Source: a virus. Taken from it: a stretch of 64,000 nt of DNA. The stretch lies in IMG/VR virus record IMGVR_UViG_3300032893_000017, positions 33,319 to 97,318 of that record; one strand, written 5' to 3'. The position numbers and the translations under genes are program-made. Positions 1 through 10,072 of the stretch are shown here, in pieces. Within the stretch, counting starts at the first letter, position 1; every line of letters begins with the position of its first letter. Below the pieces are notes generated by a model that saw only the letters and a program-made list of their open reading frames with translations, was not told where the DNA came from and searched no databases.

Positions 1-1873
1 TAATTTTTGTTCTTAGATTCTGTGCTTCTTTCTTTAAACCTTTTATCTTATCTAGTGCATTATTTTCTATATGTTCTACTTCACTTTCAAAATAGGATTC
101 TATATTATCAATGAATTTTTCATATTTGTTCTTATCTAGTGTATTTCTTAAGTGCATAGCCAATAGATTCATAGACTTCTCTAATCCTATTCCTTCTATA
201 AGTCGCTTGAAGTCCATGTTAATATCTAAGAATTTATTTGTCAGTGCATTTACTTGTCTTGTTCCTGCTTTATTGATAAGTAAGTTTATATTTGCTAAAG
301 AATCTCCATCACTGAGTTTTGATAATACAGTGTATAATGATTCTGAATTATTTTTATAGCTTATTTTATCAAACCGTTTTCCTATTTCCTCTACATCTTC
401 TTTTGAAACTTCTAAGCCTTCTATTTTAATGTTCATTAGGTTCTCATATTTTTCTTTGTTTACTTTTTTATATTCCTTTTCAAATGATTCTTTTTTAGCA
501 AGATTGTCTATATATTGTTTTGTTTTCTTTCTTATTTCACTTTTATTTTCTAATGCTTGTTTGTCTAATCCAGAATTGAATGTTATTTTTATTCCTTCTT
601 CATTATTAAGTTCATTCTTTACATCATTAACAAGTTCCAATCCATAATGATATTCATTTGGGATGTTTACATATAGTTCGTCCTTCTTATCTGTCTGTAC
701 TTCTTTGTAGTTTGCCAGTTTGTTGCAGTCTTTTATTTTACTTTGTTTCTTTCTTCTTAATACTTCTGATAATACTGTTTGTATAGTTTGTTCCTTTTGC
801 TCTTCAGATAGTTTATCATTCTTGTCTAGATTTGTTTTTAATTTTGTAGCAATGGATTCTAGTTCTTTATTTTCCTTTTCTTTGTTTGTTACTTCTTTTA
901 ACACTGCTCTTCTAGAGTCTTTTATTGATTTGTCTATTTCTTTTCTGGTTTCTTTTTTCTTTGTTTTTATCTCTTCTTTAATTCTTACTTTTTCTAATTG
1001 TCTTTCTGTAAGCTGTTTTTCTTCTTTGGGTTTTTCCAATTTGTCTTTCTTAGCATTTACTTTGAAAGTAAGATGTGATTTTGTTTTATCAAATTGAATA
1101 TTATAACCTGCATTTCTAGCTGCTTGAAAGTCTACTGCAAATTTCTCACTACTATATCTTGTAATAGGAATATGTCTTCCTTCAATTGTCACCCATACTG
1201 TTGCCCCTATTGGAATAGAATGAAAGTCTATTCTTCCTTCTGCTGTTAATTTAGGTTTAATAAAAGCTTTCAATAATGTCATTGATCTAGGGTTAAAGGA
1301 TTTCTTTATATTCTCTCTTGCTACATCATCAATCAATTTAAATCCACAAGCACAATTATTTCTCAGCATCTCTAAATAACTCTTGTCAATTATCATTCCT
1401 TCTATATACCATTTGAATATGGTTGCAAACACCTCTTTTATATTGCTGCTTGTATGCTCATTTAAAAATAAATGATTCTTTTCTTTTCTTATTTGTATTC
1501 TCAATTTATCCAGCTTAACTTTTACAATTGTATTGTTGTCTAATCCCCATTTATGAAACATCATGTGACCCAACTCATGTAAGCAGTCTGATCTAAAGTC
1601 TGGAGAGTGTTCATACAATATAATTATATTTTCATCCAACTGTGCTCTGTCTAATTTATTGTCTTCTTTATTCTTGTATAAGTGTATTATTATAGGTTGC
1701 TTTAAATTAAGAAATGATTTTATTTTTGTAAGTAAAGGTTCCAATTCTTGTTTTACTCTGTTACCTTCTTGCCGTTTCCATTCTATATTGTCTATGTGAA
1801 TGTTTTGAGATTTCTGCAATTTATTTTTATTTAATATTTTTATATCTTTTTCTTTCCAAAGAAATTTATTCAT
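1..1873 (-). CDS. Large head-associated polyvalent protein with N-terminal zincin metallopeptidase domain (runs off the window edge)
   Basis: Not in the ORF track. I translated it from ATG 1873 (GAGGT SD, overlapping the upstream stop) and found it open to the window end: MNKFLWKE...CLHELGHMM (1565-1579)...EVFATIF...WVTIEGRHIPI, then a Lys/Glu-rich coiled region. Confidence 0.8.
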   Translation of the reverse strand, partial: MNKFLWKEKDIKILNKNKLQKSQNIHIDNIEWKRQEGNRVKQELEPLLTKIKSFLNLKQPIIIHLYKNKEDNKLDRAQLDENIIILYEHSPDFRSDCLHELGHMMFHKWGLDNNTIVKVKLDKLRIQIRKEKNHLFLNEHTSSNIKEVFATIFKWYIEGMIIDKSYLEMLRNNCACGFKLIDDVARENIKKSFNPRSMTLLKAFIKPKLTAEGRIDFHSIPIGATVWVTIEGRHIPITRYSSEKFAVDFQAARNAGYNIQFDKTKSHLTFKVNAKKDKLEKPKEEKQLTERQLEKVRIKEEIKTKKKETRKEIDKSIKDSRRAVLKEVTNKEKENKELESIATKLKTNLDKNDKLSEEQKEQTIQTVLSEVLRRKKQSKIKDCNKLANYKEVQTDKKDELYVNIPNEYHYGLELVNDVKNELNNEEGIKITFNSGLDKQALENKSEIRKKTKQYIDNLAKKESFEKEYKKVNKEKYENLMNIKIEGLEVSKEDVEEIGKRFDKISYKNNSESLYTVLSKLSDGDSLANINLLINKAGTRQVNALTNKFLDINMDFKRLIEGIGLEKSMNLLAMHLRNTLDKNKYEKFIDNIESYFESEVEHIENNALDKIKGLKKEAQNLRTKI

Positions 1874-4274
1874 TAATTACCTCAACTTCCAATATTGTTC
1901 TTCCTTTTTTACTTTTATATTTTTTTTTAATTTTAAATTTCATTCCATCTATTGCTAAAAATTCCATTTCTATACTATTAAATCCCATTGAAACTATTCC
2001 ACTATCATTTATCCTTCTTAATGCAGGAGCAACTTTACTTCCTTTAGGAAAAGTAATCTCCATTAAAGCCCCATTTTCTGATTCATGTTTTGCAAAAGTA
2101 AAAGCAATAAATTTATCTCCTGTCCAAGAACTAAAAGATGGAGATTGAAAAATATCTCCCTCTTTTAAATCTTCTGTAAATAATTTTCCCATTACTCCTC
2201 TATAAACAATAATATTATTTTTTAGTGGGTTATTATTTATATAATTTCTAATATTTTTTATTTGTTTATCAACAATTTTATTTGTTTCTTCTAAATCTTT
2301 TCCTTTGAATAATTTTCTATCTTTTACATTTAAAAATCTTTCTCTTACATAATCATAAGAATTTCCAGAGTAAGAAGATACGTCTTCTAAAATCTCTTTA
2401 TTTTTAATATAAAATTCATCAATATACTTTTTATAATTTTCATTAACCCATTTATCATAATCTTCTTCAGTTCCTAAAAATACAGGTTCTTTTTTTATTT
2501 CTTTATAAATGTATTCTGCATTCTTGCCTTCACCTATCTTTTTGATATATTTGTGATTTAATCTGCTTGATTTTCTTAATTCTTTCTTCTTAAAATAGAA
2601 CTTCATCTCGTCTTTGAACTTCTTCAATGACATTGGTATTATTCCACCAAACATTTCTTTTGTCATTGTTTTTATGTATTTACTTTCAAATTCCTGTGCT
2701 GTCCCAAATCCTATTCCAAACTTTAATTCATCAAACTTTCCATCTAGCTTTTGAATAAGCATGTAGATTGTACTGTATTGCTTAATAGGTCTATTGATAC
2801 ATACATCTATATCTTCCCCGTCTGGACTGTCTGTGTTTTTGATATATCCATAATCATATTCCATTAAATTTTTATATGGACTGCCTGGATATTCCCTTGT
2901 TTCTCCTTTTCTCCATTCTATAGCAATATCTAATCCTTTGAAGTTTATTGTTTCTTTTGTTGAATCATTTTTTAATAGGTCTAATTTTTTATCTCTAAAA
3001 GACTTCTCTACTTTCCATTCTATTGCATTTATTTCTGGGTTGTATTGCTGAAACTCTGGATGAAACTCAGACCAAAAATGCGTGCAGTGAGGATGGCTGG
3101 GAATTGCTATCCATTTCTTGCCTATTGCATCCTTTCCTACCCATATATAGTATTCTGCAAATTCGTCATTTGCTATATCTGAGTTTCTAGACTTTGGAAC
3201 AAGTAAGCAAACCTTTCCTATCCACTTATTGCATGGCTGATCTGGCTTTTCTTGTTTGTTATATTCACCACTGTATATGAAGTATTTCTTTTCACCTGTT
3301 TTTAAGCTGTCCTGTAACCCTGCTGCTAAATAACCATTGTTCATTGCCATAGATGTTTCTGTTAAGATGATCCTTCTAAGATCCCTTTCATATGCCTGCT
3401 TTGTTTCGTTTGTTAAGTCTTTTCCTAACTCGTCTTCTAAGTCTACATGGTATAATCTACTTATCATTTCTTGTTTTGACAATCCATCTTCCAGCCCACT
3501 TACTATATTTTTTCTTACTATGTCTCTTATCTTTGTATAAGCATCTCCCTGTATTGATAGATACTTCGCTGCATTTTCTTTTGCGAACTTAATTGCTTGT
3601 GATAACTGTTCATTTCTATCTATTTCTTTTTTTATGTAGTTTTTGTCATTTATTCTCTCTCCATACTTGTCTACTATATTGTCATAAGACATTCTTTTCT
3701 GTTCTTCTTTGTCAATTCCTTCTTCATCCATCCATTTTAATAGTAATCCAAATAATCCTGCTCTTACTATTGTTTCATCCTCTAGATCAATATTGTCTTT
3801 AAAGTAGTTTACAACATCTTTATTGAAAGACTCCCACTCTGCATTGGTCATTAACTGTTTTGTCTCTGGGTTGTAGATTACTTTTCCTTTAAATTGAATT
3901 GGTTCTAACTTTTTCTTTTTTCCTATTCCAAAGGATTGAAACTTATCTATTGCTTTTTTATACTTGTCTCTAAGTTCTGTCCACAAGGATTTCATTAGCA
4001 ATGCTTCTTCTGTTATTTCACCTTGACTAGCTTTCAATAAATCATACATTGGAAAAGAATAAGACTTTCTTACTGACGAAGGATCTACTTCCAATTTTAA
4101 ACATAGTCCTATCATTATTCCTTCTGTAAGTTCATGAAGATATTCTAACAATGCTAATTGGTATTCTTGTATAAAACGAAATTGAGAGAATTCATATTCA
4201 TCTAGATTCTTTATTGCCTTCTCTAGAATATCAAAAAAGTTATTATTGTATTTTGTAGGAATTCTTAGTTTCAT
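1866..4274 (-). CDS. MuF/gp7-like minor head protein fused to a pyrophosphatase-like domain and a C-terminal VIP2/Alt-like ADP-ribosyltransferase
   Basis: RRIILTETSMAMNNG and IPSHPHC (MuF); YDYGYIKNTDSPDGEDIDV and DELK (PPase fold); VYRG, SFSSWT, EMEFL (R-S-ExE ART). Confidence 0.8.
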   Translation of the reverse strand: MKLRIPTKYNNNFFDILEKAIKNLDEYEFSQFRFIQEYQLALLEYLHELTEGIMIGLCLKLEVDPSSVRKSYSFPMYDLLKASQGEITEEALLMKSLWTELRDKYKKAIDKFQSFGIGKKKKLEPIQFKGKVIYNPETKQLMTNAEWESFNKDVVNYFKDNIDLEDETIVRAGLFGLLLKWMDEEGIDKEEQKRMSYDNIVDKYGERINDKNYIKKEIDRNEQLSQAIKFAKENAAKYLSIQGDAYTKIRDIVRKNIVSGLEDGLSKQEMISRLYHVDLEDELGKDLTNETKQAYERDLRRIILTETSMAMNNGYLAAGLQDSLKTGEKKYFIYSGEYNKQEKPDQPCNKWIGKVCLLVPKSRNSDIANDEFAEYYIWVGKDAIGKKWIAIPSHPHCTHFWSEFHPEFQQYNPEINAIEWKVEKSFRDKKLDLLKNDSTKETINFKGLDIAIEWRKGETREYPGSPYKNLMEYDYGYIKNTDSPDGEDIDVCINRPIKQYSTIYMLIQKLDGKFDELKFGIGFGTAQEFESKYIKTMTKEMFGGIIPMSLKKFKDEMKFYFKKKELRKSSRLNHKYIKKIGEGKNAEYIYKEIKKEPVFLGTEEDYDKWVNENYKKYIDEFYIKNKEILEDVSSYSGNSYDYVRERFLNVKDRKLFKGKDLEETNKIVDKQIKNIRNYINNNPLKNNIIVYRGVMGKLFTEDLKEGDIFQSPSFSSWTGDKFIAFTFAKHESENGALMEITFPKGSKVAPALRRINDSGIVSMGFNSIEMEFLAIDGMKFKIKKKYKSKKGRTILEVEVINE

Positions 4275-4281
4275 TGCTTTC

Positions 4282-4611
4282 CTAATATTGCATTATTGGT
4301 TGCATTAATCCATGATTTCTCATCCATACTTCCCTGAATTTTTTACTAAACAGTTTTATCCACTTATGATAGATTCCTTCACCTGGATCTGTACCTATTT
4401 TCTTTGCTATAGCTTCCCTGTATTGTTTCATAGCAGTAATTTGGTCTTGCATGAATCGATGGAAGGTTTCCTGATCCATATCTTTTTCTTTATAGATGTA
4501 TCTATTTCCTTCCTTCCTTAGATACTTATGTGATAGTGCTTTTAATAATCCATTATCTTCTAGAGTAAATGACTTAAAGAAATATTCATCGAATAAAAAA
4601 GGTTGATTCAT
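4282..4611 (-). CDS. Small head-module protein carrying the HKY tag
   Basis: YFFKS...LLKALSHKYLRKEGNRYIYKE motif shared with neighbouring genes. Confidence 0.6.
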   Translation of the reverse strand: MNQPFLFDEYFFKSFTLEDNGLLKALSHKYLRKEGNRYIYKEKDMDQETFHRFMQDQITAMKQYREAIAKKIGTDPGEGIYHKWIKLFSKKFREVWMRNHGLMQPIMQY

Positions 4612-4612
4612 T

Positions 4613-7246
4613 CTATTCTCCTTTTTCTATACACTGTAATAATTTATCATAATATTGCTGATCTTTAATTATCCCTTTCTTTACTTTATCTTCTGTGTCC
4701 CATCTTTTTTTTGTTATTTGTTTTCCCAAAACAAGTTCTTTATCTGAAGTAGACTTAAAAACTAAAGACTTTTGCATCTCCTGCTTAAATGCTCTCATAA
4801 ATATATCTTTTAATTTTTCTAAATCACTTTTTGTAAAGTCTGAAAGGCTACCTGTAGGAGCATCTGTTACTCTTACTTCTGTTTTTTTGTTTTTTAGCAA
4901 TACATCATGCAATAGCTGATTCCCAAATCTTGCTACCATTTCAGAATCATCCGCGTAATATTTACTATTACTGCTGCTTAAAAACTTTTGATAAGACTTT
5001 GTTTTCTTAACTTCTTTTACAAAAAGAACACGATCTTGATTCCAGATAGGGTTGCCGTCTTTATATCCTAATACTCTTTCTGTGTAGAACAAATGATGAA
5101 AGTATTCGTGAACAAAAGAATTCTTGAATTTAGATCCTATTGTTATACTTTTATTTGAGGGACTGTAAAAAGCTCGTGCTACCTTATTATAAGAAATCTG
5201 TGCATAATCTTTTTGAAAAGATATTGATAAATTAGTGTGATTTGCAAAACCTAAATCTTTTAAAAGTTCTAATTGATACATAATATTACACCATGCTTTT
5301 TTATTTTCAGGTGTAATATTATTTTGGATGCTTACTTTGAAGTTCTTATTAGCATAATCATACATTTCCTCTATTTTCATTTTCTCAAATTTTTTTATAG
5401 AAATCATTTTTTCAATATTCTCTAGAGTTTCATTTTCTTTCTTATCTGTCTCTTCATAAATATATTTTGCATTCTTGCCTTCACCTATCTTTTTAATATA
5501 CTTATGATTTATCTTTGATTTAAAGAATACTATTTGAGTTCCAATTGACTTAATTAGTATATCTATCTTTTCCATAATTGCATTTATTGGTTGATCACTC
5601 TTAATCATTTCTGAATACTTGCTTCCTATTTCTTTTATCTTTTTGAGTATTTTATGCACCATTACTGGAGATATTTTTATTGCTGTTGCTATTTCTTTTC
5701 CTGTTTGCTTCTTTGTTAAAAGATCTACTACTTTCTTTTCATTCTTTGTTTTTAATTCTGATTTTATTTTACTTAAAAAGTCTTTTACGTTTTTAGTTCT
5801 TTCCTTCTGTTCTTGTTCATACTGTTCATTTGTTTTGTATTCCTTTGATATTAAATCTATTTTATCAATATCACTTTCTACATTCTCGTCTAATGCAGGT
5901 GTATTAAGAATCTTTTCAAAACGTTTGTCTAGAATGTTGTCTCTGTCCACTCCCTGTATACCTACATACTCTCCAGTTTTAGGGTCTTTTATTTCTCCAT
6001 GCTTCATATATCCTTTTATGTAAGTGTATAAGTAAGTAGAAAAAGTATTTGGAGGATATTTTTTAAGATTGAAATTTCTTATTGCATGTATCATTCCCAA
6101 ATTGCCATTTTGATATGCATCCTCTACATCTATCTTTCCCGTTTCATAATCCATAAGAAGATTTTTATTACGCTGAATTACTGCTGTGATATATTTTTGA
6201 TTCTCTACAATAAAATTAGCTCTTGTTGCCCTATCTTCTTTTAACGTATTTATTTGTTCTGCTGATATATTGCCTATATTTATTCCTGTTCTAAGTGTAT
6301 ATGATTTTCCTTCCTTTGTTATTCCTTCTACTATCTTTCCACTTTCATCTCTATACCAATATCTGTAATTTCCTTTACCTCCCTGTCTACGAATGTATTT
6401 ATGTCCAGATTTCATTATTCCAGTAATATTTTTGATAAGATTGAAAAATCCTAGTTTAATTGACTTTGCCATCTCCAAAGCATGTTGTTTTACTACAAAC
6501 TCTTTTCCTGCTTCGTCTACTAATTTTACTATCCCGTCTTTTATTTCTTTTATTGTAGCAACTAATCCTCTTCCTTGGTGTTGATGAATACCTTCTTTTG
6601 ATTTTGCATCTGGTTTGATTCTAACTTTTGCTCCTATTTTAATTTCTGGTTTTTGTTCCCCGTCTTTCTTTTGTGTTGTTTTCTTTTCTGCATACTGTTT
6701 TGCTTTTTCATAGTCATTTGTGATTTTTGTTTTGCCATCCCAATAGAAACCATCTTTGAATTCCAATCCTTCTATTCGTTTGGGTTCTTGTTTAGCCTTA
6801 GGCTGGTCACCTTTAGCTTCTTCATAAATATATTTATCACCTTCCTTACGAAGATATTTATGAGACATTATATTTTTAAAAAAGACTAAATTAACTTTTT
6901 TTTTTAAGTCTGTTAAAGATTTTAAGAAGCCTATTATTACATTTGGTTTAGATTTTTTTGTTAGTCCTGCTTCTGAAAGTGCAATCGCAATAGCCTGCTT
7001 TCTATTCGTAACTTTATCACCACTTCCAGACCTTAGTTTCTTTCTTTTAAATTCCCCCATGACAACATGCACCTTGTCTTGTTTGTTTTTTAGCTTTTTT
7101 CTTTTCTTAGCTCCAGCACCTAATTTATCTGGGTGCTTGTATGCTTCTTCTACTGTCATTTTTTCTGCAGCATCTACAATATACTTTGGAAGTGCTTCCT
7201 GTTCGTTTCCTATTTTGGATTTAATTAAAAAAACTAATTTCGTCAT
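4613..7246 (-). CDS. Multidomain protein: DUF6496-like, KOW/SH3-like, sigma-70 regions 2 and 4, zincin peptidase
   Basis: KVHVVMGEFK..LRSGSG..VTNRKQAIAIALSEAG; IKIGAKVRI; VEDAYQNGNLGMIHAIRNF..FSTYLYTYIKG and TGKEIATAIKISPVMVHKI; FVHEYFHH..SEMVAR. Confidence 0.75.
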   Translation of the reverse strand: MTKLVFLIKSKIGNEQEALPKYIVDAAEKMTVEEAYKHPDKLGAGAKKRKKLKNKQDKVHVVMGEFKRKKLRSGSGDKVTNRKQAIAIALSEAGLTKKSKPNVIIGFLKSLTDLKKKVNLVFFKNIMSHKYLRKEGDKYIYEEAKGDQPKAKQEPKRIEGLEFKDGFYWDGKTKITNDYEKAKQYAEKKTTQKKDGEQKPEIKIGAKVRIKPDAKSKEGIHQHQGRGLVATIKEIKDGIVKLVDEAGKEFVVKQHALEMAKSIKLGFFNLIKNITGIMKSGHKYIRRQGGKGNYRYWYRDESGKIVEGITKEGKSYTLRTGINIGNISAEQINTLKEDRATRANFIVENQKYITAVIQRNKNLLMDYETGKIDVEDAYQNGNLGMIHAIRNFNLKKYPPNTFSTYLYTYIKGYMKHGEIKDPKTGEYVGIQGVDRDNILDKRFEKILNTPALDENVESDIDKIDLISKEYKTNEQYEQEQKERTKNVKDFLSKIKSELKTKNEKKVVDLLTKKQTGKEIATAIKISPVMVHKILKKIKEIGSKYSEMIKSDQPINAIMEKIDILIKSIGTQIVFFKSKINHKYIKKIGEGKNAKYIYEETDKKENETLENIEKMISIKKFEKMKIEEMYDYANKNFKVSIQNNITPENKKAWCNIMYQLELLKDLGFANHTNLSISFQKDYAQISYNKVARAFYSPSNKSITIGSKFKNSFVHEYFHHLFYTERVLGYKDGNPIWNQDRVLFVKEVKKTKSYQKFLSSSNSKYYADDSEMVARFGNQLLHDVLLKNKKTEVRVTDAPTGSLSDFTKSDLEKLKDIFMRAFKQEMQKSLVFKSTSDKELVLGKQITKKRWDTEDKVKKGIIKDQQYYDKLLQCIEKGE

Positions 7247-7258
7247 ATTGTTTTATCC

Positions 7259-7459
7259 TTAATTTATTTTTTCTGGTTCTTCTACTATCTCTTTAATTAG
7301 CACTTGGTTACGAATTAAATTATCTTCTATAATTGTTACTACACTAAATCTACAATTATATTTTTTCATCAATTCGTTTACCTTTTCGCAGCATTCCTTT
7401 GCATTAGGTTCTGCTGCTTCTTTGTTTTCTTTTGGATCTATGACCTGCATTTCATCCAT
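7259..7459 (-). CDS. Hypothetical protein
   Basis: ORF with AAGGAG SD, coupled to neighbours. Confidence 0.55.
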   Translation of the reverse strand: MDEMQVIDPKENKEAAEPNAKECCEKVNELMKKYNCRFSVVTIIEDNLIRNQVLIKEIVEEPEKIN

Positions 7460-7664
7460 GGTTTATCTCCTTGTCTTTCATATTTGAACTACAAGAAGGA
7501 CAATAGTTGTGCCATAAGTTATTTATCTTTTTGGCTGTCCATCCCTGCTTTTTTAGTTCCCTCATTAAAAAATTCCAATTGTTATCTGCCCAAATTTCTT
7601 TCCTGCATCCACAGTTATTGTCACAGATTATTTCATAATCGCCATCTCCAATATTTGTTATCAT
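7452..7664 (-). CDS. Small Cys-rich (zinc-ribbon-like) phage protein
   Basis: ICDNNC...KKQGW...HNYCPSC. Confidence 0.6.
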   Translation of the reverse strand: MITNIGDGDYEIICDNNCGCRKEIWADNNWNFLMRELKKQGWTAKKINNLWHNYCPSCSSNMKDKEINHG

Positions 7665-7673
7665 TTAACACTC

Positions 7674-7949
7674 CTATATTAAATGTTTAGTTACTTCTAG
7701 AAGTAAAGTTTCTATTTCTTCTGTTGTCTTTAATGAAAATACTTCTCTATACCAATACTTGCTCTCTACTGGAATATATGTCAATGTCAACAGATATCCA
7801 TTGCTTATCATTTCTAAGGTAAAACTGAACCAGTTTATTTTGATACTATCGTCTTTAAATACTTTTATTCCCATCTCCTCTATCATTTTTCTGTGCTTAG
7901 CTGGTATTTGTATTGGTTCTGGTTTTACTTCTATTTTCTTCTTTTCCAT
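7674..7949 (-). CDS. Hypothetical protein
   Basis: ORF in operon with AAGGA SD. Confidence 0.55.
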   Translation of the reverse strand: MEKKKIEVKPEPIQIPAKHRKMIEEMGIKVFKDDSIKINWFSFTLEMISNGYLLTLTYIPVESKYWYREVFSLKTTEEIETLLLEVTKHLI

Positions 7950-7958
7950 TGTAGTTCC

Positions 7959-8378
7959 TTAAAGCTTTAAAATGTTTTTTGTCTTTAGTATGATATATAT
8001 TTTCTCTTTTGCATTTGATTTGTCATGTGCTGGTTCATACTGTAATCCTTTTTCCATCATCTCATCTACTGCTTCAGTTGTCTCATGCAATAGAACATGA
8101 TAGTAAGTAACTGTTTGTAAGTTGTTGTCTATCCATACTTCATATTCTGGGATATATTTCTTTGCCATCCAGTTTCCAGCTTCATCAAAGTCCATATCAT
8201 GGTTTCTTTTTACATAAGTTCCATTTACTGTAAAGACTTTTATCTTTACTTTTTTGTAGACAAGTGTTCCTATAAAGAGTTTTTGTAAACTCCCATCCAT
8301 TTTTTCTTCATTGAATTTTTCTATGATATCTACTAGAGTTTTGAAGTCTTGCGCATCTTGTTTTAAATTATCTTCCAT
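7959..8378 (-). CDS. Putative zincin-like protein (HExxE variant)
   Basis: EVWID...LLHETTE...YEPAH. Confidence 0.5.
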   Translation of the reverse strand: MEDNLKQDAQDFKTLVDIIEKFNEEKMDGSLQKLFIGTLVYKKVKIKVFTVNGTYVKRNHDMDFDEAGNWMAKKYIPEYEVWIDNNLQTVTYYHVLLHETTEAVDEMMEKGLQYEPAHDKSNAKEKIYIILKTKNILKL

Positions 8379-8482
8379 TATTTTATCCTACTAGTAAAGA
8401 TCTGTTTTTGAATTCTTCTATTATGGCCTTGCAGAAAAGTATTTTTACATTCTTGACCACAATTACAGGCGCATAAGTTCAT
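8378..8482 (-). CDS. 34-aa CxCxCG..GHN mini-protein (not in ORF track)
   Basis: MNLCACNCGQECKNTFLQGHNRRIQKQIFTSRIK; AAGGA SD; TAATG overlap with the next gene. Confidence 0.55.
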   Translation of the reverse strand: MNLCACNCGQECKNTFLQGHNRRIQKQIFTSRIK

Positions 8483-8494
8483 ATAATTTCCTTC

Positions 8495-10072
8495 TTATAT
8501 TATAATAGTAATATATTCCTTTTTACTTTTTTCTAATTCTTCCTCATTTATTTCAAATTGAGGTTCTTCATTTTCTTCTTTTTTATCATTTCCAAATTGC
8601 TCTTGCTGGCTTTGTTGTTGGGACATTTGATCTTGTTGTATCTTCATCTGGCGTGCTTGTAGAAAAGTAGGGTCTAATATTATCTTTCCTTCTCCATCTG
8701 GAAGAGGAGGAAGATCTTTTTCTGCCCGTAATTCATCAATAAGTAAATAACTTTTTACTCGTTTATCGTCGATTGCAACTTCCTCAGTCTGATTCCTTGC
8801 TTCTAGTCCAGCAGGTTCTATAATGAATTTGTCCCATTCTTTATCTTTGTTTTGCTTTGCTAATACTTTATTATATACTTCACATAGATTTGACATTATA
8901 TATTTCAATCCACGATCATGACTAAATGCTATCTTCTTGTCTGCATTTTCATTCATAACATTTTGTGACTGTACTAGCCTTATTCCTAATTCTTGACTGT
9001 CTGTTCCATGTATTGCAAATATCCAACTTGCTAGCATCTGTATATATTGATTGAATTCCATGTCCCTGTTTGATGGAGCTATGCTTTGCCACTTTGCATT
9101 GTACTGCAAGAATGGAGTCTTCCACATTCCTTTTATCCCTCTAAACATGGATATCCATTCTCTTTGCAGTTCTTCTAAATCTTTTCTATCTAAATTCTGT
9201 CCATCAAATGTTAATATCCCTTTTGGCTGGCTTGAAGTATTAAAGAACTCTTTATTGTATGACATTCCAAATAGCCAGCTTGTTATTATGTCTATACACA
9301 TTTCTATAAAGCTGTATCCGTAATCTCTTTTCCTTATGTCTGCTCTCATATTTGAACAGTAAAATACCATTTCCTCTTCTGTAAATGTTTCTGTTATCTT
9401 ACTGTCTATCTCCTGAACATACTTTATTTCTTTATCACCCAGGTATCCTGTCTTCTTAACTGTCTTCTTTATTGTAGTTCCGTCTAACAGCCAGTAGTCT
9501 ATCATTTCTCCTTTTCTGTTTCTTCTAGGTGTAATTGCTACTTGATCTATTGTAAGTATTTCCCTTACCATCATCTCATTCATTCCAACTAAATGATCTT
9601 TCCTTTCTTCTGCTTCTGGAAAATCTATATAACCACTATATAGGATAAACTGTCCTATCTCTTCTGCTATTTTTTGTTCTTTCTTGTCTGGGGTTCTTTT
9701 TCTGTCTTTTAGTTTTACTACAAATCCTAATTCATCGTCGTTGTATGATATTCTTGCTGCATTTCTTATTTGCATACTTCTCAAGTTGTGAATAGATGCT
9801 ATAGGACCTACTTTCTGTGCTATGTCTCTTAATACTTCAAAACTTAAATTGAAGAATCTTTCTCTTATTCCTCTGGCATTGATGCTCCATCTAAAGAATG
9901 TTGGATCTGGTTCATAAATTCCCTGTGGTGGATTTATACTTCCTCCAGACTTAGACTTTCTTAGTATCTCTGTGTCTATACTTTTTTTGAATTCTTCTAA
10001 ATCCCTGTCTATATCTATTGGAGTTGGTTCTAAATAGTCTTTTAATTTGTTTAATTCGGAAAGGTTAGCCAT
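8495..10072 (-). CDS. Portal protein
   Basis: ILTIDQ..RNRKG..LDGTTI, YGYSFIE, YN..FF....PKGIL, W...F.G....K.P, RDMEF, DELRAEKDLPPLPDG; head-module context. Confidence 0.9.
   Translation of the reverse strand: MANLSELNKLKDYLEPTPIDIDRDLEEFKKSIDTEILRKSKSGGSINPPQGIYEPDPTFFRWSINARGIRERFFNLSFEVLRDIAQKVGPIASIHNLRSMQIRNAARISYNDDELGFVVKLKDRKRTPDKKEQKIAEEIGQFILYSGYIDFPEAEERKDHLVGMNEMMVREILTIDQVAITPRRNRKGEMIDYWLLDGTTIKKTVKKTGYLGDKEIKYVQEIDSKITETFTEEEMVFYCSNMRADIRKRDYGYSFIEMCIDIITSWLFGMSYNKEFFNTSSQPKGILTFDGQNLDRKDLEELQREWISMFRGIKGMWKTPFLQYNAKWQSIAPSNRDMEFNQYIQMLASWIFAIHGTDSQELGIRLVQSQNVMNENADKKIAFSHDRGLKYIMSNLCEVYNKVLAKQNKDKEWDKFIIEPAGLEARNQTEEVAIDDKRVKSYLLIDELRAEKDLPPLPDGEGKIILDPTFLQARQMKIQQDQMSQQQSQQEQFGNDKKEENEEPQFEINEEELEKSKKEYITIII

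Follow-up and report, generated by a model that had tools for sequence, protein, structure and literature searches.

Polyvalent proteins, described by Iyer, Burroughs, Anand, de Souza and Aravind in 2017, are very common in phages and conjugative elements and are predicted to be packaged and injected. For the way in which one giant chain gives rise to several enzymes, active at distinct locations in the host, there has so far been a proposal, namely MPTase (zincin) autoprocessing, with assemblin-like peptidases occurring only as rare C-terminal fusions, and the polyvalent virion RNA polymerase of N4 is packaged unprocessed (PMC5512222). The Dar proteins of P1 (DarA/DarB/DdrB) are large helicase-containing proteins that are packaged in the head and injected, some of them being proteolytically processed (PMC5512222). 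Prohead proteases cut head cargo in T4, where gp21 cleaves internal proteins and Alt at I/L-x-E (PMC9026906), and in SPN3US, where gp245 cleaves ejection proteins (PMC10052503).

We analysed a locus in a phage genome of 97 kb (IMG/VR record IMGVR_UViG_3300032893_000017), within a window of 64,000 nt (33,319 to 97,318 of that record) to which coordinates refer unless stated otherwise. The locus offers a concrete and testable alternative to zincin self-cleavage, in which the capsid maturation protease would cut linkers that bear the signal of the scaffold and the capsid leader. The head module follows the order portal ... protease-scaffold-capsid protein, the latter three lying outside the window. 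The cargo genes, all on one strand, are flanked by the portal gene and the protease-scaffold-capsid genes, and ~9 kb of cargo genes and ~17 small ORFs separate portal from protease. The portal protein (525 aa; 8495..10072, minus strand; PF04860, E = 1e-18; phrog_12, E = 1e-35) carries hydrophobic-x-Lys-Ser sites near both ends (FKK↓S 28, LRK↓S 37 and LEK↓S 513; the arrow marks the putative cut).

The 877-aa cargo polyprotein (4613..7246, minus strand; Pfam DUF6496 and Sigma70_r2) has ten such sites, with motif starts at LIKS 7, FLKS 107, MAKS 259, IMKS 277, MIKS 547, LIKS 564, FFKS 574, FTKS 804, MQKS 824 and VFKS 829. The predicted products are a leader (1-9), DUF6496 (10-109), tag plus barrel (110-261), a spacer, tag plus sigma (280-549), two spacers, tag plus zincin (577-826/831) and a tail (832-877). 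LIK↓S and FLK↓S border the DUF6496 module (6920..7219, minus strand; PF20106, E = 2e-8). Residues ~24-100 of the protein are matched by more than 100 homologs that stand alone at 60-130 aa, and in other proteins the module comes after K↓S or K↓A, among them a portal, at its C-terminus. IMK↓S and MIK↓S delimit the tag and sigma-70-like module (5600..6409, minus strand), in which Sigma70_r2 (region 2) reaches 25.1 bits (cutoff 24) and region 4 yields only a weak match to HTH_11 (E = 0.06); a relative encodes a stand-alone 337-aa homolog of this module (L007:420-1433). The spacers MIK↓S...LIK↓S...FFK↓S come before the tag and zincin-like metallopeptidase module (4769..5518, minus strand), and MQK↓SLVFK↓S comes after it. 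A homology-coverage profile of the whole protein built from 629 matches places nine of the ten sites in valleys. In the AF2 model the zincin core (611-823) is predicted at pLDDT 72-96, and five of six sites (549, 566, 576, 826 and 831) fall in linkers of pLDDT < 50 that flank this core. The sixth, site 806 (FTKS 804), sits at a helix N-cap within the confident core and is probably not a cleavage site.

The 802-aa cargo polyprotein (1866..4274, minus strand), with InPase, ART-like and MuF-like regions, has motif starts at LEKA 17, VRKS 68, LLKA 79, LMKS 93, VPKS 359, VEKS 422 and LRKS 566. We predict from these a four-site propeptide (1-95), a MuF-like body (96-424), InPase (425-568) and a tag plus ADP-ribosyltransferase (569-802). 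The Pfam match to InPase is strong (E = 1.5e-21). The MuF match, which would tie the protein to the portal, is not significant (PF04233; E = 0.012; 16.8 bits, cutoff 29.6), and three orthologs of the protein yield no MuF match. In three orthologs at 41-46% identity K19, K70, K81 and K95 are invariant within an N-terminus that is otherwise variable around them. In one ortholog the ORF stops at the boundary marked by VEK↓S 424. VPKS 359 lacks conservation and is probably not cleaved.

The 109-aa small cargo protein (4282..4611, minus strand) consists of a conserved leader (FFK↓S 11 and LLK↓A 22), an HKY tag and an 85-aa payload, and its leader is shared by an 80-aa paralog (genome 18087-18329) and, ahead of different payloads, by three proteins encoded by relatives. 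The 1244-aa cargo protein (2..1873, minus strand; full ORF genome 31457-35191) comprises a leader (1-21, ending in LQK↓S), a zincin-like module (22-164, HELGH; Peptidase_M78 weak, E = 0.016), further modules and an SNF2 helicase (742-1232; SNF2-rel_dom, E = 1.4e-20) that lies outside the window. Its motifs are LQKS 19, IKKS 189, LLKA 200 and four more in ORF 2-1873, as well as LQKA 1174, which falls inside the helicase and is probably not a cleavage site. Residues 17-131 are fused behind a MuF-like body in a relative.

An earlier note on this DNA had listed recurrent tetrapeptides of the form [LIFMV]-x-K-[SA] at domain boundaries, and all of them are found in the genes it named; of the motifs as a whole, a minority (FTKS 804, VPKS 359, LQKA 1174) are probably not sites. 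Its assignments of DUF6496, a sigma factor and a pyrophosphatase have Pfam support. The ADP-ribosyltransferase (ART) that it proposed shows the R / S-x-S / E-x-E residues in the sequence (YRG 691, SFS in SPSFSS 711 and EME 769), while PF03496 scores 21.8 bits, just under the Pfam gathering cutoff of 23.4. For the zincin module of the 877-aa protein, HExxHH is invariant in an alignment and the fold match to zincins is weak. What it had read as ORF 1-1873 does contain the motifs, yet represents only the N-terminal 624 aa of the 1244-aa protein, the remainder including the SNF2 helicase.

By domain content, the 877-, 802- and 1244-aa proteins belong to the described class of polyvalent proteins, with at least two unrelated effector-type domains per chain (877 aa, DUF6496, sigma-like and zincin; 802 aa, InPase and putative ART; 1244 aa, zincin-like and SNF2). 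The repertoire held in common includes InPase, putative ART, zincin MPTase, SNF2 helicase and possibly MuF; a homolog gives a weak LPD1 match, and the genes likewise lie amid head genes. The difference is that the linkers here bear the motif of the free-standing prohead protease, together with a leader and a tag. For the sigma-70-like module, the word 'sigma' has 0 occurrences in the text of PMC5512222.

We compared motif counts with composition-preserving shuffles. The motif, chosen in the earlier note after looking at the sequences, is ~3-fold enriched in head-module proteins (50 sites versus 16.2 ± 3.9), and the 122 other proteins of the genome show no enrichment (63 versus 72.6). Among the cargo, the 877-aa protein has 10 sites versus 3.9 expected (p = 0.005), the 802-aa protein 7 versus 2.7 (p = 0.018), the 1244-aa protein 9 versus 4.4 (p = 0.03) and the 109-aa protein 2 versus 0.25 (p = 0.02), several of these sites sharing a duplicated spacer and tag cassette, so that they are not independent counts. 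The portal alone is not significant (3 versus 1.3), and the scaffold-like protein and the capsid protease reach 10 versus 1.2 and 7 versus 1.1, respectively. Per-protein enrichment in the cargo is moderate (p 0.005-0.03). When the full set of 400 [LIFMV]-x-X-Y patterns is scanned without bias and ranked against the family-wise maximum, K-S comes first in the cargo proteins (22 versus 6.7, z = 6.1), with a score between the 95th and 99th percentile of that maximum. It is again first of 400 in scaffold plus protease (13 versus 1.5, z = 9.9) and is absent from the top patterns of the remaining proteins. A site lies within the first 40 residues of all eight head proteins and of 11 of 122 others. 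In its fuller form the site approximates (D/E)-L-x-K↓S-(L/F/I)-x-(E/D), and an LVF-like strand often comes shortly before it.

The prohead protease (322 aa; L002:4164-5132, minus strand) has its gene beyond the window, a short way upstream of those for the scaffold and an SPO1-type major capsid protein. Its AF2 model finds T4 gp21 (5jbl) as the top PDB match (probability 1.0, E = 3e-4), and hhalign relates it to the SPO1 head maturation protease gp3.2 (probability 96.9%, E = 1.9e-10) with three motif sites aligned. H67 and S129 are invariant across 24 homologs, as are the sites K17 and L177-x-K179-S180; several of its motif sites fall in predicted strands or helices. Judged by model and profile comparison, it is a serine protease of the T4 gp21/assemblin fold and a homolog of the SPO1 enzyme. 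The major capsid protein (phrog_752, E = 3e-88) is 28-30% identical over 93-95% of its length to those of SPO1, CP-51 and others (tblastn). The motif that the earlier note had suggested looking for at its N-terminus is present as IVK↓A at 30-33, at the maturation junction after a variable 32-residue leader, and the junction K32-A33-L34 is invariant in relatives and SPO1, with conserved sequence downstream. Homologous capsid protein and protease and the order protease-scaffold-capsid protein characterise this as an SPO1-type (Herelleviridae-like) capsid module.

SPO1 and phage K (Herelleviridae) share with this phage the gene order, a homologous protease, a related capsid protein and hydrophobic-x-K↓S/A in scaffold, protease and capsid leader. 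SPO1 has 11 scaffold sites, with ILK↓S at residue 15 of its protease and LNK↓A in the capsid protein; phage K has seven sites in the scaffold-like protein and VVK↓S in the capsid protein. The putative K↓S cutting by K/A511-type myoviruses that the earlier note invokes fits these sequences. In the stretches examined, from portal to protease, SPO1 and phage K have no polyvalent cargo genes. In IMG/VR relatives of our phage, scaffolds have 10-12 sites versus 1.3-1.8 expected, proteases 7-8 versus 1.5 and cargo proteins 6-13 versus 1.4-5.9, and the motif count in their tail genes is at expectation. Relatives also shuffle modules at motif boundaries. Within the cargo, 3 of 26 sites fall inside domain envelopes versus 12.5 expected (P ~ 1e-4), the envelopes having been drawn partly after the sites were known. 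A repeated HKY...G.Y.Y tag comes after many of the sites.

Could this pattern arise without cleavage? The proteins contain 12-17% Lys and the motif was picked once the sequences had been seen, so that a chance or composition artefact of Lys-/Ser-rich, helix-rich proteins was considered. Shuffles and the family-wise scan contradict it, equally Lys-rich non-head proteins are unenriched, and the pattern is replicated in unseen genes and in other phages; we regard such an artefact as extremely improbable, and the enrichment over a Lys-rich background that the earlier note wished to see tested is real. Alternatively, the cargo motif may be a by-product of a duplicated linker and tag cassette that serves domain shuffling or folding, with the cargo remaining uncleaved and full-length, and scaffold, capsid protein and protease as the sole substrates. 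Five cargo sites directly precede paralogous HKY tags with several spacers alike, enrichment per cargo protein is moderate, and the N4 polymerase provides a precedent for unprocessed packaging. However, enrichment and conservation extend to sites that no tag accompanies, such as K19, K70, K81 and K95 in the 802-aa protein. The linkers that hold the sites are predicted to be flexible, and a protease of this specificity in the same compartment would be expected to cut there. Pairs of sites spaced by 10-20 residues are reminiscent of the SPN3US propeptides, which are cut several times. We hold a pure by-product to be unlikely.

If the cargo is cleaved, its own zincin modules might cut the linkers, in the capsid or after injection, leaving only scaffold and capsid protein to the prohead protease. 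Two HExxH modules are present (577-826 of the 877-aa and 22-164 of the 1244-aa protein), in line with the autoprocessing proposed in PMC5512222. Against this, the linker motif matches that of the scaffold, the capsid junction, the protease and the head modules of SPO1 and phage K, which lack such zincin genes in the stretch examined; proteins of relatives carry the same sites with no Pfam-detectable peptidase domain, and a zincin that matched the P3/P1/P1' preference of an unrelated serine protease would be a coincidence. The pattern of sites favours the prohead protease as the enzyme that dissects the cargo, in parallel to the ejection proteins of SPN3US or to Alt and the internal proteins of T4. 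We rate cutting by the zincins as quite improbable. Another possibility is that packaged and cleaved pieces act inside the capsid, in core or inner-body scaffolding, DNA organisation or portal plugging, and are not injected. T4 IPIII and phiKZ inner-body proteins play structural roles, and no enzymatic activity is known for several modules, among them DUF6496, the small barrel and the stretch 203-657 of the 1244-aa protein. A putative ADP-ribosyltransferase, a pyrophosphatase, a sigma-like factor and an SNF2 helicase, in contrast, have no obvious substrate in the capsid, and the activities match those of injected proteins, T4 Alt and P1 DarB-type helicases (PMC5512222). We give a purely capsid-internal role little credence.

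The reading we prefer, with a probability of about 0.7, is that the cargo proteins are packaged, dissected at their linkers by the prohead protease and injected as modules with the DNA; the earlier proposal of packaged polyproteins cut by this protease gains support from the enrichment, the scaffold and protease sites, the capsid junction and the coincidence of sites with module boundaries and low-pLDDT segments, from which we infer cleavage, capsid residence and ejection. Hydrophobic-x-Lys↓Ser/Ala would be the recognition site of the prohead (capsid maturation) protease. The 877-, 109-, 802- and 1244-aa proteins and the 80-aa paralog would be late-made cargo that co-assembles into the prohead, entering probably via short N-terminal leaders and/or the repeated HKY...G.Y.Y hairpin tag. 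Once activated, the protease would shred the scaffold into pieces of 10-41 residues, strip the 32-residue capsid-protein leader, trim itself and cut the cargo at inter-domain linkers, the short spacer peptides between double sites being lost. The modules set free would comprise DUF6496, the small barrel, the sigma-like factor, two zincins, the MuF-like body, the pyrophosphatase, the ADP-ribosyltransferase and the SNF2 helicase; when the phage next infects, they would exit together with the DNA and act on the host ahead of phage gene expression.

Such a system would resemble T4 in several respects: late-made cargo goes into the prohead core, the protease motif closes a short leader at the N-terminus, a single motif serves for scaffold, capsid protein and protease alike, the cargo includes a (here putative) ADP-ribosyltransferase and the protease has the gp21 fold. 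It would differ in its site, Lys↓Ser/Ala here versus I/L-x-Glu↓ in T4, and in its products: T4 strips terminal propeptides only, whereas the cargo here is a multi-domain chain with many internal sites that would release several enzymes, and the mature modules, unlike those of T4, would keep a repeated tag. In phiKZ, 201phi2-1 and SPN3US, too, the motif of the prohead protease (gp175 / gp245) occurs in many proteins inside the head, propeptides have more than one cut site, and portal and protease are also processed. These are, however, jumbo phages of the T4-like capsid lineage with an A/S/G-x-Glu↓ site and long N-terminal propeptides that are removed, and segmentation into enzyme domains is not described for them. 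The Dar proteins of P1 are alike in packaging, injection and partial processing, but belong to another capsid lineage with no common cleavage grammar known.

If the preferred reading is true, (i) the boundaries of mature effectors would be predictable from sequence alone, (ii) the sigma-like factor, ADP-ribosyltransferase, pyrophosphatase and SNF2 helicase would be pre-made, injected tools for take-over or anti-defence, and (iii) leader, site and tag would form a toolkit to load foreign proteins into SPO1-type capsids, comparable to the T4 capsid targeting sequence. A wider and more tentative reading, which we consider possible although the odds are against it, is that a portable three-part grammar in SPO1 / HK97-protease-type capsids loads, releases and delivers arbitrary enzyme modules. 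Its parts would be an N-terminal leader of the form M-x-QPFL...FFK↓S...LLK↓A or M-x-KLVFFK↓S, spacers between modules that end in hydrophobic-x-K↓S/A, and a post-cleavage HKY-x-R...G.Y.Y.Y beta-hairpin tag. In this speculative form, polyvalent proteins of many phages, cultured as well as uncultured, would follow the grammar, the prohead protease rather than their own zincins would generally split them into working units, and the tag would act as a capsid-retention or ejection signal usable for packaging foreign proteins. In distant polyvalent proteins, the HKY tag occurs at most 14 residues after [LIFMV]xK[SAGT] in 20 of 22 instances, a MuF-PBECR2-MuF_C protein among them.

The record is a single 97,318-bp contig of ~27% G+C, with nearly all genes on the (−) strand; the window covers its bases 33319–97318. 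In order of transcription, the head module runs from the portal gene (window 8495–10072, (−); PF04860, phrog_12) through four small ORFs to the genes of an 877-aa protein (DUF6496, Sigma70_r2), a 109-aa protein, an 802-aa protein (InPase and a sub-threshold ADP-ribosyltransferase match) and a 1244-aa protein, which extends beyond the window after residue 624 and has a SNF2 helicase as its C-terminal half; these four are hereafter called cargo proteins. About 17 small ORFs follow, and then a GIY-YIG homing endonuclease gene (L002:5116–6000, (−), where L002 is an upstream locus of the same genome; phrog_314, E=1e-28), which overlaps the start of the gene for a 322-aa protein (L002:4164–5132, (−)), the prohead protease. 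The genes of a 255-aa acidic protein, the scaffold, and of the 497-aa major capsid protein (phrog_752, E=3e-88) come last. The capsid protein is 28–30% identical to those of SPO1, CP-51, Leptospira LE1 and hundreds of Herelleviridae. At the nucleotide level, megablast with this region found no match in the phage collection. The small-ORF stretch separating the cargo genes from the protease gene also holds a type II hammerhead ribozyme (L002:9838–9903, (−), genome 27838–27903; 42.6 bits), the only one in that stretch to score above the Rfam gathering threshold.

The tetrapeptides [LIFMV]-x-K-[SA] that the earlier note listed in these proteins are all present where it placed them, together with a few additional matches to the pattern. 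Expected counts were derived from composition-preserving shuffles. The motif occurs 10 times in the 877-aa protein (3.9 expected, p 0.005), 7 times in the 802-aa protein (2.7 expected, p 0.018), 9 times in the 1244-aa protein (4.4 expected, p 0.03) and twice in the 109-aa protein (0.25 expected, p 0.02), although these sites are not all independent because a cassette of spacer and tag is duplicated among them. The genome's other 122 proteins, which do not belong to the head set and are in many cases just as rich in Lys, contain 63 matches against 72.6 expected; the enrichment thus exceeds a Lys-rich background. To guard against the bias of a motif picked post hoc, we scanned all 400 [LIFMV]-x-X-Y patterns. 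K-S is the strongest outlier both in the cargo proteins (22 vs 6.7, z=6.1, a score between the 95th and 99th percentile of the family-wise maximum) and in scaffold and protease (13 vs 1.5, z=9.9), and it is not among the leading patterns in the rest of the genome. A site falls within the first 40 residues in 8/8 head proteins vs 11/122 others.

In sequence libraries the 322-aa protein matched phrog_3698, of unknown function, and, weakly, a head-maturation-protease phrog; sequence searches of Pfam and PDB gave no identifying match, so that its identification required fold and profile–profile comparison. The N-terminal domain (residues 13–170) is confident in the AF2 model, for which the only significant PDB matches are three chains of the T4 prohead protease gp21 (5jbl; probability 1.0, E=3e-4, TM 0.61 on target). 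When profiles were compared, the protein matched gp3.2, the annotated head maturation protease of SPO1, with a probability of 96.9% (E=1.9e-10), and the alignment pairs three K|S motifs of the two families, one N-terminal, one in the middle and one C-terminal (the bar marks the predicted cut bond). Invariant across 23 homologs of 38–58% identity are H67, S129 (in G-A-S-V/L-G-G), K17, L177-x-K179-S180 and K221. The protease itself carries 7 sites vs 1.1 expected, and K179|S180 lies in a low-confidence linker right after the catalytic domain, the place at which T4-type and HK97-type proteases cleave themselves.

The earlier note had suggested looking for the motif at the N-terminus of the major capsid protein, and IVK|A is indeed found there, at residues 30–33. 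When the protein is aligned with those of three uncultured relatives and of SPO1, K-A-L does not vary, the 22–32 residues preceding it differ in both length and sequence, and what follows it is strongly conserved, a combination that is the signature of a putatively removed propeptide. HK97 gp5 is cut after Lys103. The scaffold contains 10 sites vs 1.2 expected, which would divide it into pieces of 10–41 residues; from its sites we derived a fuller consensus of roughly (D/E)-L-x-K|S-(L/F/I)-x-(E/D). Residues 219–254 of the protease (L002:4371–4478, (−)) copy the capsid protein's N-arm and maturation junction (residues 30–66; L002:3203–3313, (−)), with 15/37 positions identical (E=1e-4) between the protease sequence ILK|TLEAG...GGQNIQTQSLEG and the capsid-protein sequence IVK|ALQAQ...GGALQPQSLE. 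The mimicry is visible in SPO1 too and may be a way to recruit the protease into the prohead and then to release it.

The same arrangement recurs in other phages. An IMG/VR scan with the single protease sequence found nothing; an alignment-based scan returned six loci, in which (i) scaffolds carry 10–12 sites vs 1.3–1.8 expected, (ii) proteases 7–8 vs 1.5, (iii) capsid proteins a site at residues 22–26 and (iv) large cargo proteins 6–13 sites vs 1.4–5.9, with the downstream tail genes at the expected motif count. In SPO1 the scaffold gp3.3 carries 11 sites, with ILK|S at protease residue 15 and LNK|A in the capsid protein. In phage K, V-[SE]-K|S occurs 7 times in the protein encoded between the protease and capsid-protein genes; LKK|S stands at protease residue 14 and VVK|S at residues 22–25 of the capsid protein. 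This recurrence marks the motif as a general signature of SPO1-type head modules that is not peculiar to this phage. Cleavage of K|S by prohead proteases of K/A511-type phages had been taken as established: the sequences agree with it, but we found no support in the literature searched. A511 Cps reportedly loses about 23 residues.

If the cargo proteins are substrates as well, their sites should be accessible, and the claim that these mark domain boundaries holds for most of them along four lines: homology coverage, an AF2 model, domain envelopes, and module shuffling with conservation. HMMER, run in full with the 877-aa protein as query, returned 629 relatives, and their homology-coverage profile was used in place of HSP end-points against relatives, which were too fuzzy for a formal breakpoint statistic. 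The profile resolves modules at about 21–100, 120–261, 311–549 and 601–830, and 9/10 sites lie in the valleys, FTKS 804 being the only one within a module. Whole-protein MAFFT alignments with the module homologs misplaced modules, so only the C-terminal third (540–877) was folded, from a clean alignment of nine zincin homologs in which HExxHH is invariant. Sites 549, 566, 576, 826 and 831 flank its confident core (611–823) at pLDDT <50, and site 806, the Lys of FTKS 804, caps the N-terminal end of the last helix. Across the three large proteins, 3/26 sites lie inside Pfam, AF2 or homology domain envelopes, which were partly defined post hoc, vs 12.5 expected (P about 1e-4).

Among relatives, modules are shuffled at site positions. 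In one relative, the 802-aa protein's MuF-like body is fused to the zincin that here heads the 1244-aa protein, and InPase is a separate 208-aa gene in one relative. An ortholog of the 802-aa N-terminal half is a separate gene in another relative's locus L003 (222–1514, (+)), with its stop codon exactly at the VEK|S 424 boundary (window 3003–3005, (−)). A stand-alone 337-aa sigma-like protein with C-terminal DUF5661 (relative's locus L007:420–1433, (+)), homologous to residues 322–551 of the 877-aa protein, carries 6 sites vs 1.8 expected. K19|A, K70|S, K81|A and K95|S of the 802-aa protein are invariant in orthologs of 41–46% identity within an otherwise less conserved N-terminus; VPKS 359 is not conserved among orthologs and is probably not a site. 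Instances 804, 359 and 1174 and some within the protease fold are probably not cut. As to the domains themselves, the ART match is just below the Pfam threshold, with R, S-x-S and E-x-E residues visible, and fold comparison matches the zincin module weakly to anthrax lethal factor and to zincins of the PPEP type (E=3.5e-3); a KOW domain, proposed earlier, and a MuF assignment of the 802-aa protein were looked for and found no confirmation. A metagenomic portal (P0007, 535 aa; Phage_portal_3) has a C-terminal DUF6496 module with VTK|A just before it, so that the same small module is deliverable as a portal appendage.

By domain content and position, the cargo proteins are polyvalent proteins in the sense of Iyer et al. 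2017, who predicted such proteins to be packaged and injected, put forward the proteins' own zincin (MPTase) domains as what divides them into functional units, and mentioned assemblin-like peptidases only as rare C-terminal fusions (PMC5512222). The cargo proteins do contain zincin-like modules, but the motif they share with scaffold, protease and capsid protein points to the free-standing prohead protease as the more plausible cutter. The system would then work like those of T4, where gp21 cuts internal proteins and Alt at I/L-x-E (PMC9026906), and of SPN3US/phiKZ, where gp245 cuts ejection proteins at A/S/G-x-E (PMC10052503). Whereas both T4 and SPN3US/phiKZ only remove propeptides, this phage would cut one chain into several enzymes. 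We infer cleavage, capsid residence and ejection of the cargo proteins, and consider it fairly likely (probability about 0.72) that the prohead protease cuts them, once packaged, at a substantial fraction of the marked sites. The observation of the earlier note is confirmed, and its interpretation is supported within the limits of sequence analysis. The kind of system is known; new is the proposed segmentation of polyvalent proteins by a capsid protease, combined with a leader and a tag that follows the cut, and our literature search found no paper linking polyvalent proteins to prohead-protease cleavage.

Modules are often separated by two sites 10–20 residues apart, and these short spacers are rich in LVF-like strand. 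Within a few residues after many sites follows a repeated tag, HKY-[IL]-x-K/R...G...Y-x-Y-x-E, with five copies across the 877-, 109- and 802-aa proteins (approximately window 5441–5518, 6332–6409, 6788–6865, 2499–2570 and 4468–4539, all (−)) and one in an 80-aa paralog (genome 18087–18329). AF2 models it as a low-confidence beta-hairpin. Among distant polyvalent proteins from a deep search, including a MuF-PBECR2-MuF_C protein with four copies, 20/22 tags have [LIFMV]-x-K-[SAGT] ≤14 residues upstream; a retention, ejection or protease exosite signal are candidate roles. The 109-aa and 80-aa proteins and three relatives' proteins, five proteins with unrelated payloads from four phages, share an N-terminal leader M-x-QPFL...FFK|S...LLK|A/S (window 4540–4611, (−); L001:18255–18329, (−), upstream in the same genome; and, in relatives' loci, L005:4655, L007:4320 and L008:9676, (+)), which resembles the T4 capsid targeting sequence.
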